Of a stretch of DNA of 64,000 nt, positions 3,259 to 48,731 are shown piece after piece. Numbering within the stretch: position 1 is the stretch's first letter; each line of letters begins with the position of its first letter. Source of the stretch: a virus. The notes below the pieces were generated by a model. It was given only the letters and a program-made list of their open reading frames with translations, searched no databases and was not told the DNA's origin. The position numbers were made by a program, and so were the translations under genes. The stretch is from positions 32,001 through 96,000 of IMG/VR virus record IMGVR_UViG_3300019757_000003. One strand, 5' to 3'.

Positions 3259-4296
3259 ATGATAGAAACAAAGTTTAACATAGGTGGAACTACAGTAGGT
3301 GTAGTTAAGATTGATACAAATAGTTTGGTAAGTGAAGTGCCTAATAAGATTTATACTGTAAAGTATAATGAACAAGTAGACGAGTATTATTTGGGTTTAA
3401 TACAAGACAATTATAAAGAGAATTTACCTAAAAAAATGTATGGTATTCAAGGTAGGCAAAGTAAGATTATTACAACATTCAAAGATAGAAAAAAATCTAC
3501 TGGTGTATTATTATCAGGTGATAGTGGTGTAGGTAAAACTCAACTGATGATTGGGATTGCAGAAGAGCTGAGAGAAGAAGGTATACCAATTATCTTAGTA
3601 GAGTCTAAATTCTATGGAGAAGTATTTAATGACTTCATTAGTTCTCTAGGAGTTTGTGTAGTACTATTTGATGAGTTTGCTAAGATTTATGATAAGCAAC
3701 AAGAGAATTTGTTATCTCTACTAGATGGTACAACCTCAAGTAAGAAGTTATACATCTTTACTGAGAACAACTCTAATAGCATAAACGATTATATTTTAAA
3801 TAGACCTGGAAGAGCTTATTACCACTTCAAATATACTAAACTAGAGCTAGAAGTAGTGAACGAGTACTTAGCTGAAACAGAGATTACAGATACTAACAAA
3901 GAAGAATTACTAGAGTACTACTCTAAAGTAGATAAATTTAGCTTTGATACCCTACAAGCAATTGTAAGCCAGTGTAGTAGATTTCCAGAAGATACTATGA
4001 AAGAAGTGTTAACAGAGCTTAATGTACCTGTTACGATGAGTGATAGAACTAAATATCGAGTTCTTAAGTTACTTAAAGATGGTAAAGATATTACAAAGAA
4101 AGTTACTAGTGTATATGTAGACCGTAGGTCACTAGATTTATACATTAGAAGAGGTAAAAACCCTAATTACAACATTGTCTTTTATGATAAAAAGGAATTA
4201 CCAGATGGTAGAGTAGTCTATAGAACTGAGGATGATGGTAATATTTACGAAGTAACGGCAGTAAAAGAGTTAGTAAATCTTTGGGGTGCTTACTAA
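3259..4296 (+). CDS. AAA+ ATPase
   Basis: Walker A GDSGVGKT, Walker B VVLFDEF, LLSLLDG, NRPGR arginine-finger motif. Confidence 0.9.
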   Translation: MIETKFNIGGTTVGVVKIDTNSLVSEVPNKIYTVKYNEQVDEYYLGLIQDNYKENLPKKMYGIQGRQSKIITTFKDRKKSTGVLLSGDSGVGKTQLMIGIAEELREEGIPIILVESKFYGEVFNDFISSLGVCVVLFDEFAKIYDKQQENLLSLLDGTTSSKKLYIFTENNSNSINDYILNRPGRAYYHFKYTKLELEVVNEYLAETEITDTNKEELLEYYSKVDKFSFDTLQAIVSQCSRFPEDTMKEVLTELNVPVTMSDRTKYRVLKLLKDGKDITKKVTSVYVDRRSLDLYIRRGKNPNYNIVFYDKKELPDGRVVYRTEDDGNIYEVTAVKELVNLWGAY

Positions 4297-4740
4297 GTGA
4301 CAGAAGCATTACTACAACAATCAATAGTCCAACACTTCAAAACTATGTATAGTCCATTAATGATTGAATCATCTTGGAATGGAATTAACCTTAGTCCAAT
4401 GACACAAGTTCAGAAAGCTAAGATTATGTCAGATTTTTATGGTCAAGGTGGTATTAAGGGGTCTTCAGACTTAAAGGTGTACTTACCTGATATGAAAATG
4501 CTACATATAGAATTAAAGAACCCATCAATAGCTGACGGTAAAGGTCAATCACCTAGTCAAGTAAAAGTACAGAAAGACTTAGAAGCTATAGGACATAAGT
4601 ACTACTTAGTAAATAGTTCAGATAAATTCTTCAAAATAATCAATGACAACCTATCAGTAGAGTATAGACAAGAGCTACTAGAGAACTATAGTGGAGAATA
4701 CACTATAGAAATGGTAAAACAACAATATAATTTGGAGTAA
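4297..4740 (+). CDS. VRR-NUC domain nuclease
   Basis: EA.LQ..IV, G..G.SDL, HIELK, QSPSQ...Q..L...G..Y.LV.S pattern. Confidence 0.8.
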   Translation: MTEALLQQSIVQHFKTMYSPLMIESSWNGINLSPMTQVQKAKIMSDFYGQGGIKGSSDLKVYLPDMKMLHIELKNPSIADGKGQSPSQVKVQKDLEAIGHKYYLVNSSDKFFKIINDNLSVEYRQELLENYSGEYTIEMVKQQYNLE

Positions 4741-31064: not shown

Positions 31065-32198
31065 ATGAAAGAAAAGACAGATATAGTAGTAATTAGCCTC
31101 TTCGATGGATTAAGTGGTGCTCGTCTAGCTTTAGATGAAGTAGAACACCTAAATATATTGAGGTACTACTCTAGTGAAATAGATAAGTACGCAATACAAG
31201 TAGCAGACAATAATTACCCACAAGATACAGAGTATAGACTAGGGTCAGTAGTAGACATTGATACTGATAAGCTATTAGCAGAGATACATGAAGACTTTGG
31301 TCCAGATGTAAAGATTCTACTAGTTGGAGGTAGTCCTTGTCAAGGGTTCTCTATGGCTGGTAAACTAAAAGGTTCATCTACAAAAGAGGGTATTGATGTA
31401 ACAGAACTAGAACAATACCTAGATTTGAAGGAGCAAGACTTTGAATTTGATGGACAATCCTATTTATTTTGGGAGTACATTAGAATTAAAGAGGCTATTC
31501 AACCAGATTATTGGCTATTGGAAAATGTTAGGGTAACTAAAAAGTGGTTACCAATGTTCAATAAAGCTACTGGTGTAGAACCAGTGTTCATTAATAGTGA
31601 AGTTCTATCAGCACAATCAAGACCTAGGTTTTATTGGTCTAACATAGCTATAGAACAGCCAATAAATAAAGGTATCCTAATAAGAGACATACTACTAGAT
31701 CTACCTATGGATAAGCCTCTTACTCCATTTATGTCAGGTGAATTTGATGGAGTTAGTAGATTAGACAAAGGCATATTCAATTTTACAGATTTACCAAAAG
31801 GAATGTGTCAAACAGTTGGTAGTGGTCATGGGAATAAGTACTTAATCAGTAGACCTTGTGAAATGTTACCAAAGAAAAAGAATAGTACTCACGTAGCAGA
31901 TGCTGCTGATATTAAAGGTAACGAGAGCATTAAACGAGTCTACTCTATAGATGGAAAGTCACCGACTGTAACTACTCAACAAGGTGGTCATAGAGAGGTT
32001 AAAGTACTAATAGACGAATGTAGATATAGAAAGCTAACACCACTAGAGTGTGAGAGATTACAGACACTACCAGACAACACAACACAAATACTGAAACTTA
32101 ATGGGAAAGATTTGATTAGTGATACTCAAAGATTTAAGATGATAGGAAATGGCTTCACTAGAGATGTTATAGCACATATCTTTAAAGGTATTAAGTAA
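31065..32198 (+). CDS. C5-cytosine DNA methyltransferase
   Basis: SLFDG, GSPCQGFS, LLENV, QSRPR, RKLTP.ECERLQ, IGNG. Confidence 0.95.
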   Translation: MKEKTDIVVISLFDGLSGARLALDEVEHLNILRYYSSEIDKYAIQVADNNYPQDTEYRLGSVVDIDTDKLLAEIHEDFGPDVKILLVGGSPCQGFSMAGKLKGSSTKEGIDVTELEQYLDLKEQDFEFDGQSYLFWEYIRIKEAIQPDYWLLENVRVTKKWLPMFNKATGVEPVFINSEVLSAQSRPRFYWSNIAIEQPINKGILIRDILLDLPMDKPLTPFMSGEFDGVSRLDKGIFNFTDLPKGMCQTVGSGHGNKYLISRPCEMLPKKKNSTHVADAADIKGNESIKRVYSIDGKSPTVTTQQGGHREVKVLIDECRYRKLTPLECERLQTLPDNTTQILKLNGKDLISDTQRFKMIGNGFTRDVIAHIFKGIK

Positions 32199-39866: not shown

Positions 39867-40580
39867 ATGAGATATAGACAGTTAGGAAATAGTTCTGCTT
39901 TCAATACTAAGATGACTAATAGTTCTTTTCTAGTAGAAGAAGGTGGTAAACAGTTACTAGTAGATTGTGGATACAATGTGTTTACAGAACTAAAAAGACT
40001 AGAGGAACTAGGCGAATTAGACTTGAGTAAGATAGATAATATATTTATTACTCACACGGATGATGACCATATTGGTTCTCTCAAGGCTTTTCTGTACTAC
40101 AGATACTTCGTACTAGGTAAGACTACTGAGATTTACTCAGGAGACTATGACGGTCTGTGCAACTACTTGAATGGAGTGAATTCACAAGTAAGAGACTTTA
40201 GGAAAGTAAAAGCAAAGATTTATGACCTAAAACTAGGTTTACCTAATGTCTTATTTGAGGGTTATAATGTAATTACAACAGATACTCATCATTATCAGAG
40301 TTGTAAAGGTATTGCTTTTGAGAAGATTAGTGGTAAAGATACTCTATACATATCTGGAGATACTAAAGCTTGTGAAGAGATTAAAGACACTATTCAGCAT
40401 ATATTAGATAATGGTGGTAGGTATAGAATATTTCATGATTTTAGTAACTTTGATGATGAGAGTAAACAAGTACATGCTTGTAAATCTGATACAGAAAGAG
40501 TATACAGTAAAGAAGTCTTAGAAGCTATTACTTGGTATCATAACGATACAGAATTTAATAGTGATTGGCAAGAACTATGA
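39867..40580 (+). CDS. MBL-fold metallohydrolase, Apyc1/RNase Z-like
   Basis: LG..SAF....N.SFL, LVDCG, ITHTDDDH.GSL, T.H, YISGDT, IFHD, VHA, H; ATG 39867 follows AAGGAG. Confidence 0.8.
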   Translation: MRYRQLGNSSAFNTKMTNSSFLVEEGGKQLLVDCGYNVFTELKRLEELGELDLSKIDNIFITHTDDDHIGSLKAFLYYRYFVLGKTTEIYSGDYDGLCNYLNGVNSQVRDFRKVKAKIYDLKLGLPNVLFEGYNVITTDTHHYQSCKGIAFEKISGKDTLYISGDTKACEEIKDTIQHILDNGGRYRIFHDFSNFDDESKQVHACKSDTERVYSKEVLEAITWYHNDTEFNSDWQEL

Positions 40581-41269
40581 GTAAAGAAACTAAAGCAGAG
40601 ATGCTAGACTACTTAATAGCTATATTTAATGATGAACCATTAGTGGACATCAGGAGTATACTAGAAGGTGGTGAATTTGATGATAAAGACATTGACGAAC
40701 TAGGTATAGAAGATTACGATGAGGAAGAGTCCTTATATGGATACTAATAACACAAGGAAACAAATGAAGAAAAAACAATTAAAACTAGAACTAGAGTCAG
40801 CTAACAGCTTAATATCAGCCATGAGAACCGAACTGGAAGACTATAAAGAAGCTTATAAGCAAGTTGTGGAAGAGAACATTAATCTAGTAAATAAGATGGA
40901 TGCTTGCTTTGTAGAGAAATTAGCCAATAGAGTTAAAGAGGTTAATCCTTTAGATGTTATTGATTCTCTATCCATTAAGTCCCTTGTAGAACTTGATGAG
41001 TCTGGTGTAGTATATGAGTTAGATGGTGTAGCTTTACTATCTGAGCTAAGAGCAGAGTTTAAAGAGATTAGACAAGAGAAAGGTTTAGAATAATACATAG
41101 GGCAACCTATGTATATCAAATTAAAGGATAGGTATGAAGAAATATGTAATATATAATAATACAATGTCCATAATTGTAAATAAACCAGATTATATGACTA
41201 GACAACAACTTAAAAGAAATATGATTATTAAATATGGAATAGTCTATATACACAGAATAAAGGACAATA

Positions 41270-41494
41270 ATGAGTGACATCCAAGAAAGAGAAGAGTACT
41301 ACAAACTAGACAGAGAAAATAAAACCCAAGAAGCTATCAGTAACCTTCTTACTCTAAAAAACGAACCTCAAGGACTCGTAACTGATAGTGTTAGAGACTA
41401 TAACGTAGGTTCATCTAACTACTCTAAACATAAGATTCAACCTTGGGATATATGGTTGGAGTACAGCTTGAATCCTTGGGATGCTGACATCTAA
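41270..41494 (+). pseudogene. 5' half of an interrupted DUF3310-like gene
   Basis: Ends YNVGSSNYSKHKIQPWDIWLEYSLNPWDADI*; the expected continuation RVLR...DYEKI.HIC.ERIRQL is at 42520-42606. Confidence 0.75.
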
Positions 41495-41528
41495 TTTAAG
41501 TATATTTTAACATCACATTAGATACAAT
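41495..41528 (+). promoter_or_regulatory. Promoter at the left end of the endonuclease cassette
   Basis: TTTAAGTATATTTTAA...TTAGA-TACAAT, nearly identical to 46514-46543. Confidence 0.6.
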
Positions 41529-41564
41529 ACAGGTACAGATAAGAAGAACACAAAAGGAATTTAT

Positions 41565-42320
41565 ATGAAAAGCAAGTTTGATAAAACAGGAAGTAGTCTG
41601 GAGGTAAGAACCTCTAATTTCTTACGTAGAGCAATAGAGAGACATAATTCAAAGTATTCTTACAACAAATTGCAATACAAAAACGCCAATAGTAAGGTAC
41701 TTATTACTTGTCCGATACACGGAGACTTCCAACAAACAGCCAATGACCATGTGAAAGGGGCAGGGTGTCCAGCATGTGGGAGGTTATCTACAACTAATAG
41801 TCACACCTTGTCATTTTCTGAATTTAAAAATAGAGCTATTGCAGTACATGGTACTAAATACGCCTATAACGAAAGCCTATTTACTATGAGTAGTGAAAAG
41901 GTAGGGATAGTTTGTACTACGTGCATGTCTGAATTTACTCAACTTGGATCAATGCACTTGCAAGGACAAGGGTGCTCTAAGTGCAATAAACATGGATTAA
42001 ACTACACACAACCTACAATATTGTATTTTTTGAGTGTGAACAAGGGCGTAGCCTTTAAAATTGGTATTACAAACTTTTCTGTAAACGAAAGATTCTTAGT
42101 TAAAGACTTAAAGACTATAGAAGTAGTAGCTGCTAAACAGTACAACACAGGTTATGAAGCTTACGACGCAGAACAGGCAATACTACTTGAATTTAAAGAT
42201 AAGCAATATAGAGGAGCACCACTATTATCGACAGGTAATACTGAGCTGTTCTCGGAAAACATATTTAATGAAATAAAGGAGAGATATTTCGATGAAAAAA
42301 AATCCACTACTGAACCCTGA
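41565..42320 (+). CDS. Free-standing homing endonuclease (two DUF723-like Zn repeats plus a GIY-YIG/Mug113-like domain)
   Basis: Two F..RA...H..KY.Y...KV.I.C....F.Q....H..G.GC..C repeats; LYFL...FKIGIT....RF...EQ.I...GNTELF. Confidence 0.85.
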   Translation: MKSKFDKTGSSLEVRTSNFLRRAIERHNSKYSYNKLQYKNANSKVLITCPIHGDFQQTANDHVKGAGCPACGRLSTTNSHTLSFSEFKNRAIAVHGTKYAYNESLFTMSSEKVGIVCTTCMSEFTQLGSMHLQGQGCSKCNKHGLNYTQPTILYFLSVNKGVAFKIGITNFSVNERFLVKDLKTIEVVAAKQYNTGYEAYDAEQAILLEFKDKQYRGAPLLSTGNTELFSENIFNEIKERYFDEKKSTTEP

Positions 42321-42840
42321 CTCTAAGCACTACCAAATGTTCGATGAAAAAGAAACTATAGAACACTTAGAAGAGATGATGACTATAGATGAATTAAAAG
42401 GATGGGCGAAAGGTAACGTATTCAAGTACAGACTACGTATAGGGCATAAAGATGCTATAGAGAAAGAAATGACAAAAATAAAGGGGTATGAGGAATACTA
42501 CAAATTTTTAAATACTGAGAGAGTTCTGAGAGATAGTGGTAGAAATGATAGAACACTAGATTATGAGAAGATTAAGCATATATGTGATGAGAGAATAAGA
42601 CAACTAACAACTACAGTAACACCTATACTTACCAAACGATATATAACTATAGTAGATTCGGATGAGGGACAAAAGGATTTTTGTGTATATACTAAGTTGT
42701 CTAAAGATGATGTAGATGAAGCAATAACTGCTAATAAACAAACAGAAGACCATGACTATGAAAGTCTATTTGACTTACTTAGACTATCGGATAAAGACTT
42801 AGAAGTTATAGATTTATCTAAAATAATGGTAAGTTACTGA
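42292..42840 (+). CDS. Chimeric DUF3310 protein (T7 gp1.7/SaV-like domain fused to the orphaned 3' half of the split gene)
   Basis: NP..KHY....ETIE...G...GNV.KY..R.G.K....E..K...Y, then RVLR...ERIRQL. Confidence 0.75.
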   Translation: MKKNPLLNPDSKHYQMFDEKETIEHLEEMMTIDELKGWAKGNVFKYRLRIGHKDAIEKEMTKIKGYEEYYKFLNTERVLRDSGRNDRTLDYEKIKHICDERIRQLTTTVTPILTKRYITIVDSDEGQKDFCVYTKLSKDDVDEAITANKQTEDHDYESLFDLLRLSDKDLEVIDLSKIMVSY

Positions 42841-43448
42841 TGTTTGAGACTTTAGTAGGATTAGCAATAATAACTAATACAATTACACAAGTAACTTGGT
42901 TTTATATAACAATTATTAGGAAGAAGAATTAATGAAGGAAATGAACTTAACTAGGTTGCTAAAGAGTTGCTGTGTTACCATACCAGATAAGGTACAAGAT
43001 GCTTTATTTGACTATCTAGTGGAGTTAGATGTAGATTTAAACACACTAAATGTTGACAATTTATATGTAAATGATGTACAGTACTTAGAAGATGATGAAG
43101 GTGAGAATTATGCAGAAGATTACCATCTGTTAGTAAAAGATGAGGATGGAGGATATTATATATGAAATTTGAATTATACGATATAGTAGAAACTATAGAT
43201 GGTAGTATCATTTATAGAATAGACAATGTGTGTGAAGTAGATAAACTATACAACAGTAACCTAAATGCAGAAGAGATTGAAGATAGGTATTCCTTTTACG
43301 AAAGTGAACTAAAACTAGTAGCTTCTAAAGATAAGGTATTTTCTTGTCATAGATGTGGAGAAGATCTATCAAACACAGAGATGACACCAGGGTATGTATT
43401 TGGATGCGACACTTGTGATGAAGATTTTTGCTACTTTGAGGTAGCTTG

Positions 43449-43985
43449 ATGAAAACTAAACATATATGCTTGTATGGAGGACCAGGAATTGCCAAGAGTA
43501 CAACAGCCTCTGGTCTATTCTATAGGATGAAAGAAGCTGGATATAAAGTAGAACTGGTACAAGAATACGCTAAAGAACTGACTTATAGAGAAGATTTCAG
43601 TACACTAAAGAACCAACTATTTGTATTAGCTAATCAACATAAGAACTGGTTTATGTTAGAGGGTAAAGTGGATTATGTAATCCATGATAGTCCTTTACTA
43701 CTAAGCATACACTATGCTCAAGAATCTAATCATTTGCCTCTAAAAGAGTTTAAAGAATTTGTACTAGCTTTAAATAGTAAGTATGAAACTATGAACTTCT
43801 TACTAATCAGAGATAATGAAGCTCATCCATATAAACAATATGGCAGAACTCAAACACTAAAAGAAGCTATAGAAATAGATAAATCTGTGAAAGGATTACT
43901 AGAAGACTCTGATACTAGTTTCTTAGAAGTTCGTGATTTAGCTAAGATAGCTAAGATAATTGAGGTTACATATGAGAACTCTTAG
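43449..43985 (+). CDS. NadR/AAA_28-like P-loop nucleotide kinase
   Basis: LYGGPG.AKST, ELV.EYAKEL, DSPLL, GR.Q...EA..ID. Confidence 0.8.
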   Translation: MKTKHICLYGGPGIAKSTTASGLFYRMKEAGYKVELVQEYAKELTYREDFSTLKNQLFVLANQHKNWFMLEGKVDYVIHDSPLLLSIHYAQESNHLPLKEFKEFVLALNSKYETMNFLLIRDNEAHPYKQYGRTQTLKEAIEIDKSVKGLLEDSDTSFLEVRDLAKIAKIIEVTYENS

Positions 43986-44203
43986 AGATTTATTTGAACA
44001 ATTAGCTGACTTATCAGAAGATGAGTTAGATAAGGACTTGCACTTGACAGTATGGGACCAATCAGATAATTGGAATTGTAAAGATATAGATATAAATACA
44101 GATGGTACTTGCAGTGATTTACAACTAGTACTAGATAGTGGTTATACAGTAAGTTATAACAGAGATAAGGTATTTGAAGTACCAAAACATTAAAGGAAAA
44201 AAA

Positions 44204-44515
44204 ATGGGATATTATACACAGTATGACCTAGAGTTAGGTAGTAACGAGAGATTAGATAGAGATGGAATAGCAGAGAAATTTGAAGATATTTCGGGATTTA
44301 GTATGCACTCAATAGACGACGAATCTATGAAATGGTATGACTATGACACAGATATGCAGAAGCTAAGTAAGGAGTATCCAGAAGTATTATTTATAATGAC
44401 TGGATTAGGTGAAGACTCTGACGATAACTGGAGACACTACTTTAGAGGTGGTAAAAGCCACAAAGTAGATGCTATTGTAGCCTATCCTCCATTAGATGAA
44501 ACTAAATTAAGTTAG
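44204..44515 (+). CDS. Conserved phage protein (MGYYT...KWY...G.GE...D.W family)
   Basis: Motifs as named; ATG at 44204 follows AAGGA. Confidence 0.7.
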   Translation: MGYYTQYDLELGSNERLDRDGIAEKFEDISGFSMHSIDDESMKWYDYDTDMQKLSKEYPEVLFIMTGLGEDSDDNWRHYFRGGKSHKVDAIVAYPPLDETKLS

Positions 44516-44729
44516 AAGAGATGTTAATATCTAACAAACAAGACTTAAAGAAAAAAATTGAATTGGGTGGATTGAGATTATCATTTGAGGGTAATGGACA
44601 CCTAAACTTAAAATACACAAGCAACGATAGCACAGAACAAGTACAGTTTATACTAAATAAGTCAGAAATGAGAAGTATACTTGAGACACTATCAGTAGAA
44701 CGTAGTAACAAAAACATTAAAGGAGAAAT

Positions 44730-45488
44730 ATGAAAGTAGAGTTAATAGATATACCTACAGAGATTACACACGATAGTGTATTAGCTTATTTAGCTAGTTG
44801 TAGTAGTGTTGTTAGGGATGCCCAACCTAAGAATAATGAGAGGTTGTTTAAAAGACTACAAAAAGAGTCTTTTGGAGATAAGCCCAGTAGGGTATTTGAG
44901 TATGTACCTTGTAAGATTTCTAGTGGTGTGATACAATATAGTGCCATGCAGTTATTTGGTTTTTACACAGAAGAACAGACAGATAATACTTCCGTTTTTG
45001 AACGAGCCTATTATACAAATGCTAGAGAGTTGCTAAATTGGGGCTGGACTTGGGAAGAGGTATTAAAAGTAGTAGACTTTACTAACTATAAAGCTGTTAA
45101 AGTTACTGCACCTTACTTCCTATATGGTCAAATGAGCACACATAACCAAATAACTAGTGTTAGCCATAGTAATAGATATACGCAGTCTAAACTAGGTTAT
45201 TGGTGTCCAATACCTAACCATCCAAATTGGGACTATACTGTAAGGGAGACAACACCAAATAGTCTTGAACGTATTATGAAAGCAGCAGGTATTGTTCGTA
45301 GAGAAGTGTTTGCAAGAGGTTCTGATATGTTAGAGTATAGAGTCAGTACCCTAGGTGGATATACCAATAATCCAAATGCTTGGGAGCACTTTATCAACCA
45401 AAGACTTAATGACAGTCATACACAACTAGAAATGAGAGAACTAGCTTCTCTTATAAAAGAGAAACTTGAAGGAGTTAGTAATAATTAA
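44730..45488 (+). CDS. thyX: Divergent FAD-dependent thymidylate synthase
   Basis: PSRVFE, AP.F...Q..TH....S....S.RY, HF..QR..DSH.Q.E.R.LA. Confidence 0.72.
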   Translation: MKVELIDIPTEITHDSVLAYLASCSSVVRDAQPKNNERLFKRLQKESFGDKPSRVFEYVPCKISSGVIQYSAMQLFGFYTEEQTDNTSVFERAYYTNARELLNWGWTWEEVLKVVDFTNYKAVKVTAPYFLYGQMSTHNQITSVSHSNRYTQSKLGYWCPIPNHPNWDYTVRETTPNSLERIMKAAGIVRREVFARGSDMLEYRVSTLGGYTNNPNAWEHFINQRLNDSHTQLEMRELASLIKEKLEGVSNN

Positions 45489-46508: not shown

Positions 46509-46513
46509 TAACA

Positions 46514-46543
46514 TAAGTATATTTAAGGTAACTTAGATAGAAT
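46514..46543 (+). promoter_or_regulatory. Promoter upstream of the structured non-coding locus
   Basis: TAAGTATATTTAAG...TTAGA-TAGAAT. Confidence 0.55.
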
Positions 46544-48143: not shown

Positions 48144-48731
48144 ATGACAAAAGAACACAAGTTTGTCGATTTAAAAGCACTTATAAAAGAACATAGTCAC
48201 ATAATAAATGGAGGAGTTGAAACTTTTAACTGGATTAAATTTCTTTGTGAAGTTGAAGACATACCTAGTAAGTTGGTAAAATCTAAACGAGGAAAATTCA
48301 CCCTACTATATGATGCTGAAAAGACAATTGACTTAATACAAAGAGCATGTATCAGATACGAAATAAAGCCATTAAGAAAACACTCGGTAAAAGAGTTCTA
48401 TTTTGTTTATATACTTAAAATACAAGAACTTAAAGACACCTACAAAATAGGTATTTCACACGATGTGAAGCACAGATTGGAAGAAATCAATAAATGTTCC
48501 TTAGAAGTTAATTTACAGCACACTTACGAACTAGTAGAGAATATGAAGTTTTCTCTAAAGAGTCAAGCCTCAAAAGTAGAAAGAGAGATTAAATATCTTC
48601 TAAAAGACTACAAATCAACAAATATAACACTACATAAAACAGAAGTATTTACTATACCTTTACAAGATCTACAAAAGATCCTATTTGTATTTGGTAAATA
48701 CATGACAAAAAGTGGAACTAATGTTAAGTAA
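48144..48731 (+). CDS. GIY-YIG (T5orf172/Mug113-like) nuclease-domain protein
   Basis: FVYIL...YKIGIS....RL..I...A.KVE..I...TEVF. Confidence 0.8.
   Translation: MTKEHKFVDLKALIKEHSHIINGGVETFNWIKFLCEVEDIPSKLVKSKRGKFTLLYDAEKTIDLIQRACIRYEIKPLRKHSVKEFYFVYILKIQELKDTYKIGISHDVKHRLEEINKCSLEVNLQHTYELVENMKFSLKSQASKVEREIKYLLKDYKSTNITLHKTEVFTIPLQDLQKILFVFGKYMTKSGTNVK

Follow-up and report, generated by a model that had tools for sequence, protein, structure and literature searches.

What becomes of a conserved phage gene when an endonuclease gene lands in the middle of its coding sequence? The general view is that free-standing homing endonucleases stay out of coding sequence, except where they are hidden by an intron or an intein. 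The question is raised by a locus at positions 41270 to 42840 of a 64,000-nucleotide (nt) stretch of viral DNA, here called the window, which covers positions 32,001 to 96,000 of the IMG/VR record IMGVR_UViG_3300019757_000003. The record is 114,270 bp long, with terminal repeats and a GC content of 33.5%, and the genome appears complete; the genes in the window include a virion-RNA-polymerase-like giant gene, a DNA polymerase gene and a primase gene. The locus consists of three open reading frames (ORFs), A, B and C, which lie on the same strand in three different frames and together fill 41270 to 42840. We found that a block of ~1.03 kb, made up of a promoter-like motif, an endonuclease gene and a DUF3310 ORF devoid of a stop codon, is inserted in a conserved site of a single-copy gene. 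Intact alleles of this gene are known from two records, a protein of 182 amino acids (aa) in ENA (P0301) and a contig of a sister phage (L130). The features of the locus are as follows.

41270..41494, + strand: ORF A, N-terminal fragment of the split gene (74 aa plus TAA); 74/74 identical to residues 1-74 of P0301
41491..42520, + strand: inserted cassette, 1,030 nt; placed by DNA alignment with both flanks in L130, by the blastn blocks and by direct reading
41497..41535, + strand: TAAGTATATTT-N-TTAGATAcAATA, a promoter-like motif in the 5' end of the insert and 30-68 nt ahead of ORF B; 2 copies in the genome
41565..42320, + strand: ORF B, homing-endonuclease-type gene, 251 aa; assigned by phrog_681, DUF4379 and aligned homologues
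42292..42519, + strand: ORF C residues 1-76, complete DUF3310 domain without stop codon; Pfam PF11753, E 1.1e-12
42520..42840, + strand: ORF C residues 77-182, displaced 3' part of the split gene; identity to P0301 and L130

The initial annotation had noted that ORF A stops abruptly at LNPWDADI and that the continuation expected for its family reappears about 1 kb further on. Both observations hold: ORF A ends with ...LNPWDADI (last residues IQPWDIWLEYSLNPWDADI) and a TAA, and the continuation starts at 42520 inside the 182-aa ORF C (42292 to 42840), in which the DUF3310 domain is followed by ERVLRDSGRNDRTLDYEKIKHICDERIRQL and then a 75-aa tail, with RVLRDSGRNDRTLDYEKIKHICDERIRQL from 42520. 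ORFs A and B are separated by 70 non-coding bases, and the start of C overlaps the end of B by 29 nt. A Shine-Dalgarno-like AAGGA(G) lies 5-10 nt ahead of the ATG of all three (A, AAGGA at 41260-41264; B, AAGGA at 41554-41558; C, AAGGAG at 42276-42281). Since the exact A, B and C proteins were each found on 4 contigs, from three sources (JGI/IMG, Logan and ENA), an assembly artefact is unlikely. No paralogues of A, B or either domain were found in the 114-kb genome, and the base composition of the insert was uninformative (34.5% GC versus ~33% around it).

The two halves form one gene in homologues

A tblastn search with ORF A led to proteins of Bacteroides, Phocaeicola and Parabacteroides phages, including crAss001 gp62. 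In crAss001 gp62, in ctcc615, in BV57P1 and in all IMG/VR loci that carry the motif, the two halves are read as one ORF, NPWDADI[IV]KR[VI]LR...DYEKI[IK]HIC.ERIRQ. If the gene had been split in the window, the two segments should occur in one protein elsewhere, and indeed, both halves were joined in one ORF in all ~280 homologues checked (90 loci, 94 short proteins and 98 aligned sequences). In the 88 loci where tblastn found both pieces, these lay one codon or one short loop apart, and all 90 of the 90 loci with an A-like match were contiguous as judged by eye. Among 95 A-like proteins of 40-130 aa from a collection of 5.8 billion proteins, only that of the window itself stops at DADI, and the other 94 of 94 are unsplit; no other split allele was found among the 94 proteins and the 90 loci. 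The surroundings showed no synteny with those in crAss-like and Bacteroides phages in which the domain also occurs.

All residues that are invariant in this half of the family are retained in ORF A. The site of insertion falls between I74, K76 and R77, which are invariant in 98 family members, and the motif around it (NPWDADI/VK/RVLR, with slashes at the junctions) is the most conserved of the family. Homing elements usually sit between invariant residues. As a separate observation, half-domain duplication recurs in the family of the split gene, since P0005 (ENA, 198 aa) has a diverged copy of the N-half (THYSDKKIQPIDFIDAK) ahead of the full domain, and the proteins of L040/L042-type loci (~4001-4636) as well as P0158 have a second C-half-like segment behind it.

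A sister phage retains the empty site

P0301 is the one other member of the 90%-identity cluster of ORF A. Its residues 1-74 are those of A, residues 75-76 are Val-Lys and residues 77-116 are identical to residues 77-116 of C; the tail differs at a few positions. A degenerate DNA pattern designed to span the predicted empty site matched one contig, L130. This contig (JGI metagenome contig Ga0193965_1003371, 3,807 bp) starts inside the split gene and continues into genes syntenic with window positions 42932-44515, and window and contig share 93-95% nucleotide identity. Positions 1-63 of L130 were identical to 41428-41490 of the window (63/63), and positions 72-1008 were 95.3% identical to 42521-43457 (blastn). 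The two blocks are separated by 8 nt (A GTT AAA C) in the intact allele and by 1,030 nt (41491-42520) in the window. Thus, the alignment with uninterrupted homologues that the initial annotation had called for fixes both junctions: 1,030 nt replace 8 nt.

Since the comparison with L130 places the junctions at 41491-42520, the insert begins with the TAA that ends ORF A and finishes with the two codons that close the DUF3310 part, ACT GAG. Alternatively, when ATC and AGA are taken as synonymous forms of the codons on either side, 41492-42519 replaces the codons Val75-Lys76. On the right-hand side of the junction, only 1 mismatch was found in the first 117 nt, compared with ~5 per 100 nt further on, and on the left there were 0 mismatches in the 63 nt available. 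Near-identical flanks of this kind would point either to a recent event or to an unusually constrained conserved stretch. A flanking repeat at the junctions was not seen beyond a shared TTAA. Because the sister phage retains the uncut gene, the insertion can be mapped to the base, and because an empty-site allele exists there, a true insertion created the split. P0301 and the empty site in L130 thus bear out the initial proposal that an insertion had divided the gene.

The inserted DUF3310 domain and the chimera

Pfam DUF3310 (PF11753) matched residues 11-66 of ORF C over positions 4-58 of the 60 in its profile, with 48.3 bits (cutoff 24). Residues 1-76 carry the subfamily signature HPLLNPDSxHY...KYRLRIGxKD...YYxYL, and ~100 members of this subfamily were recovered, which are 51-65% identical to C 1-76. 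Members occur as short proteins or as C-terminal domains, with 3-30 residues following YYxYL, and several of them start with MKHPLLNP or MTHPLLNP; ORF C starts with MKKNPLLNP. Since starts and ends match those of the subfamily, the insert holds a DUF3310 gene at its natural full length, with only the stop codon missing. In the chimera, this domain reads 106 further codons into the old 3' half. Pfam and the subfamily comparison thus agree with the view taken from the letters at the outset, that a DUF3310 domain of a different subfamily is fused in frame to the orphaned 3' half. No A-like or C-half-like sequence was present within 3.5 kb of 28 other IMG/VR loci of the subfamily.

A profile built from C 1-110 and P0006 was run against 1.84 billion representative proteins, and P0006 was the only other fusion of DUF3310 with a C-half. 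It has 127 aa, comes from one Logan contig and consists of a DUF3310 domain, ten extra residues and then RTLRNKSSDTRIMDYRKIRHICDERIRQLE. Its C-half keeps the conserved residues, and its DUF3310 part is ~50% identical to that of C. A tree of 103 DUF3310 domains was without resolution, and under the approximately unbiased (AU) test the two fused domains were compatible with a single origin (p 0.92). P0006 and C suggest either an old shared fusion or two independent ones; either way, a chimera of this kind can apparently be maintained, because the diverged P0006 carries the same fusion with a conserved C-half.

The endonuclease gene

ORF B is intact and matched phrog_681 ("endonuclease") with an E value of 8e-40. 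Two DUF4379/DUF723 (CapR-like) Cys4/His zinc-finger repeats are followed by a C-terminal T5orf172-like domain of the GIY-YIG clan. DUF4379, a treble-clef zinc finger, was found in two stretches (26.8 bits versus a cutoff of 24.5), and MUG113 scored 18.0 bits versus a cutoff of 22.3. Three homologues, aligned over ~90% of B, exceed the thresholds of T5orf172 and MUG113 (55, 35 and 21 bits) and also those of DUF723/DUF4379, and B keeps their invariant residues Y154, K165, G167, T169, E203, G224, T226 and E227; the Cys/His columns are invariant in the alignment of B with these homologues as well. By its predicted domains, B probably belongs to the T5orf172 type of homing endonucleases with CapR/DUF723 zinc-finger repeats, a more precise assignment of what had been read as a zinc-repeat, GIY-YIG-like endonuclease.

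When B was used as the query, tblastn matched 889 phage records, with up to 17 places per genome. Full-length homologues were 32-36% identical over ~90% of the length of B; they are flanked either by portal and head-morphogenesis genes or by tape-measure and tail-chaperone genes. B is a short, divergent form with two repeats and is at most 41% identical to anything found; a scan of IMG/VR gave only zinc-finger relatives with 28-41% identity. No solved structure related to B was found by sequence search. A further gene of the T5orf172 type, at 48144-48731, has no significant similarity to B (BLASTP E 0.3) and would therefore be an independent acquisition.

Splicing, inteins and recoding

Could a one-piece protein be restored after transcription or translation? 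The Rfam search gave no match at E<=10 in 40500-43500 and none at the gathering score in the whole window, and so the absence of a group I intron core, noted at first from the letters, was borne out. The non-coding part of the insert is only 70 nt long and folds worse than shuffled sequences (z +1.9), and the 3' 200 nt of the insert are bona fide DUF3310 coding sequence. Splice pairs of the form U/...G/ near the junctions were listed by hand; every one of them left a TAG or removed 3-5 residues, including invariant ones, in line with the earlier failure of such pairs to restore the frame. With no ribozyme core in Rfam and no splice pair that restores the protein, a group I or group II intron was rejected. 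A split intein was rejected as well: intein blocks were not found, ORF A stops exactly at host-gene sequence, and C starts with a DUF3310 domain. Recoding or readthrough would not help because the TAA is followed by a TAG nine codons further on.

Is the split gene itself DUF3310-like?

The initial annotation had called the split gene DUF3310-like, a claim that found support in fold and language-model comparisons but failed in profile searches. Pfam gave no match on ORF A, and Pfam DUF3310 matched 0/16 and 1/98 members of the family of the split gene. Profile-profile comparison of this family with DUF3310 (hhalign) was not significant (E 0.71 and 0.43); the only alignment offered was the expected one, IIKRVLRtK with ilKYrLRiGkKd. 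In the ESM Atlas, an 86-aa family member adjoins DUF3310 clusters, the nearest named ones, with a score of 0.95. An AlphaFold2 model of the intact allele P0301, based on a 98-sequence alignment, reached a predicted local distance difference test (pLDDT) value of 74.9; an earlier run on 18 sequences (pLDDT 57) was not used for the fold search. With this model, Foldseek against BFVD returned, after the gene's own family, dozens of SaV-like, DUF3310 and "nucleotide kinase" models, with weak E values (3e-3 to 1e-1) and probabilities of 0.9-1.0. No solved structure in the PDB matched by sequence or, with the model, by fold. It is likely, with moderate support, that the split gene shares the SaV/DUF3310 fold superfamily. 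It is not filed under Pfam DUF3310, and the kinship rests on the fold search and on language-model features.

The model has helices at residues 2-29, 50-53, 58-65, 69-79 and 87-107, followed by a beta-beta-alpha-alpha-beta tail. Since it places a helix at 69-79, the cut after I74 falls inside this helix. The displaced 3' part thus comprises the second half of helix 69-79, the long helix 87-107 and the alpha/beta tail domain.

A two-copy motif at the 5' end of the insert

A promoter had been proposed to start right at the new stop codon. A scan for sigma-70 promoters indeed gave a 9/12 site at 41484-41513, but such sites were no commoner than in shuffled sequences (15 found, 14.5 expected). What stands is a motif of 30-38 nt (TAAGTATATTT...TTAGATAnAATA) at 41497, whose only other copy in the 114-kb genome is at 46514. 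It may act as a promoter, or else be a transferable module for regulation or recombination. The second copy (46510-46539) heads a long non-coding stretch and is 100% identical at positions 3482-3511 of L130, where the flanks on both sides are non-homologous or carry an insertion or deletion.

Other differences between the window and the sister phage

A second presence/absence difference lies 600 nt downstream of the cassette. Window positions 43458-43959 are missing in L130, in which the flanking genes abut (L130 positions 1008/987 join window positions 43457 and 43960), and a thymidylate-kinase-like gene of 179 aa (ORF 43446-43985; phrog_2107, E 5e-19) is absent. Further on, 44515-45420 of the window and 1543-2364 of L130 have no nucleotide match. 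A 290-aa ORF of L130 stands in place of the 252-aa ORF of the window (44730-45488) and may be a replaced gene.

How the split may have arisen

We consider it probable, at about 0.72, that an insertion driven by the endonuclease or by a break left a gene in pieces, with chimera C as the working product. Set off by the endonuclease, or by a double-strand break at the conserved site, illegitimate repair would have inserted the cassette ectopically; the two junctions are no more than 8 nt apart, and the sequence on either side is almost identical to the intact allele. A gene in pieces would result, with neither RNA nor protein splicing. ORF A would be translated as a 74-aa N-terminal fragment that stops at the TAA supplied by the insert, and ORF C, from its own Shine-Dalgarno-like sequence and ATG, as a protein that joins the new DUF3310 domain to the last helices and the tail domain of the old gene. 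The incoming domain may thus replace the severed N-terminal half, a domain replacement that would make C the working product, and A may be either a remnant or a partner that binds to the orphan helices. Moreover, the insert destroys the probable target site of the endonuclease, so that a filled genome would escape its own cutting.

Several observations weigh against this reading. The split falls inside a predicted helix, and ORF A is therefore unlikely to fold on its own. With flanks that are still ~99-100% identical to the intact allele, the chimera may have arisen too recently to have been tested by selection. The T5orf172 score of B itself, 17.2 bits, lies below the Pfam cutoff of 20. No B-like gene was found within 3.5 kb in the 28 other IMG/VR loci of the C-type DUF3310 subfamily, and megablast and blastn searches of 50,697 phage records for a donor of the insert gave nothing beyond a 44-nt stretch. 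Since neither paired loci nor a donor were found, the joint arrival of endonuclease and domain is parsimony, not observation.

Did the insertion simply inactivate a dispensable accessory gene? A and C would then be useless, and the in-frame fusion would be a matter of chance (~1 in 3). Loss could even be favoured if an abortive-infection system of the host senses the protein of the split gene, as AbiV senses lactococcal SaV; PMC8306868, citing Haaber et al., describes SaV-type genes as accessory early genes with a link to AbiV sensitivity. Such a knockout would agree with flanks so close to the intact allele that the event would be recent and untested by selection, with a cut inside a predicted helix and with the lack of a second copy of the split gene in a genome that appears complete. 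However, the DUF3310 ORF has lost exactly its stop codon and reads on through the old half, P0006 has the same fusion with a conserved C-half at ~50% divergence, and the same arrangement is present on 4 contigs. We therefore regard a plain knockout as unlikely.

Likewise, the DUF3310 ORF and the endonuclease gene might have arrived independently, for example by an initial domain insertion or fusion with the endonuclease as a later squatter; the endonuclease would then not be the cause of the split. The two genes are not neighbours in the 28 other loci, and P0006 might be a fusion without any endonuclease. But the sister phage, at 93-95% identity, lacks both together, and the whole block replaces 8 nt; B and C overlap and have one upstream motif in common; and no intermediate form was found among 15 billion proteins. 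Two separate events are thus rather improbable. A hidden self-splicing intron, or another repair at the RNA or translation level that restores a one-piece protein, is hardly credible: the introns in the tape-measure and terminase genes of ICP1 were unannotated and found only by RNA sequencing (PMC10448857), and the insertion site is a conserved motif, as intron sites are, but the empty Rfam searches, the poorly folding 70-nt stretch, the genuine DUF3310 coding sequence at the 3' end of the insert, the failure of every U/...G/ pair, the lack of intein blocks and the TAG nine codons after the TAA all speak against it.

The break-driven insertion with a chimeric product might be extended by one further assumption, that the endonuclease gene and the DUF3310 ORF are one mobile unit carrying a "spare part" for targets of the SaV/DUF3310 superfamily, with P0006 as a second, older landing of such a unit in another member of the family. 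If so, the destroyed domain would be replaced in the same step, and insertion at an otherwise forbidden site would be tolerated. We consider this extension doubtful.

Comparison with known systems

Fractured genes with split inteins, in which an endonuclease gene lies between the halves, have been described (Dassa et al. 2009, PMC2677866). The order of genes is the same in the window, an N-fragment gene, an endonuclease gene and a C-fragment gene on one strand, but intein blocks are absent, the extra N-terminal part of C is DUF3310 and not a C-intein, and protein splicing is not expected. In ICP1 and many other phages, T5orf172 endonucleases with CapR/DUF723/DUF4379 repeats are described whose genes delimit stretches of genetic exchange and have shuffled domains (Barth et al. 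2023, PMC10448857). B shares with them the domain plan and the tendency to lie in or beside conserved genes; unlike the ICP1-type genes, it lies inside a gene without an intron and together with a cargo ORF. With respect to the SaV family (Lactococcus phages p2 and sk1) and DUF3310, which include the T7-like "nucleotide kinase", the inserted domain is a member of Pfam DUF3310, and the model of the split gene matches SaV-like and DUF3310 models of a viral fold library, whereas the family of the split gene fails the Pfam and profile-profile tests. The SaV/DUF3310 family is widespread; the event described here shows an exchangeable part of the domain.

A close known case is nrdA of Aeromonas phage Aeh1, whose coding sequence is interrupted by mobE, a free-standing endonuclease gene (Friedrich et al. 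2007; Crona et al. 2011, PMC3045599). As in Aeh1, an endonuclease gene without an intron sits in a conserved coding site, the two fragments are separate ORFs and sequence derived from the insert has become part of a fragment. The locus is a gene in pieces in the same sense: an uninterrupted allele exists, and the interruption holds an endonuclease ORF with neither an intron nor an intein found. In Aeh1 NrdA, the tails derived from the insert are part of the fragments and essential for assembly (PMC3045599). These tails are short, unique and present on both fragments, whereas here the 5' fragment has no tail and the 3' fragment has a whole domain of the same superfamily. Furthermore, the endonuclease is of the HNH type in Aeh1 and probably of the T5orf172 type here, and the target is an essential enzyme there and a small accessory gene here. 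Function after the split was shown for Aeh1, whereas for the locus in the window it is a proposal.

Thus, genes in pieces are known as a kind. The novelty lies in the insert, which brings a whole domain from the superfamily of its target, fused to the orphaned half; in addition, a sister phage offers the empty site for comparison. Beside introns and inteins, Aeh1 nrdA represents a third way for an endonuclease gene to persist in coding sequence, in which the protein works in pieces aided by tails derived from the insert. The locus in the window is a second and cleaner natural example, with junctions known to the base because filled and empty sites differ by one 1,030-nt block at 93-95% identity. 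It makes testable whether a selfish element can buy tolerance by bringing a replacement domain, whether the endonuclease cuts the intact allele and whether the fragments reassemble.

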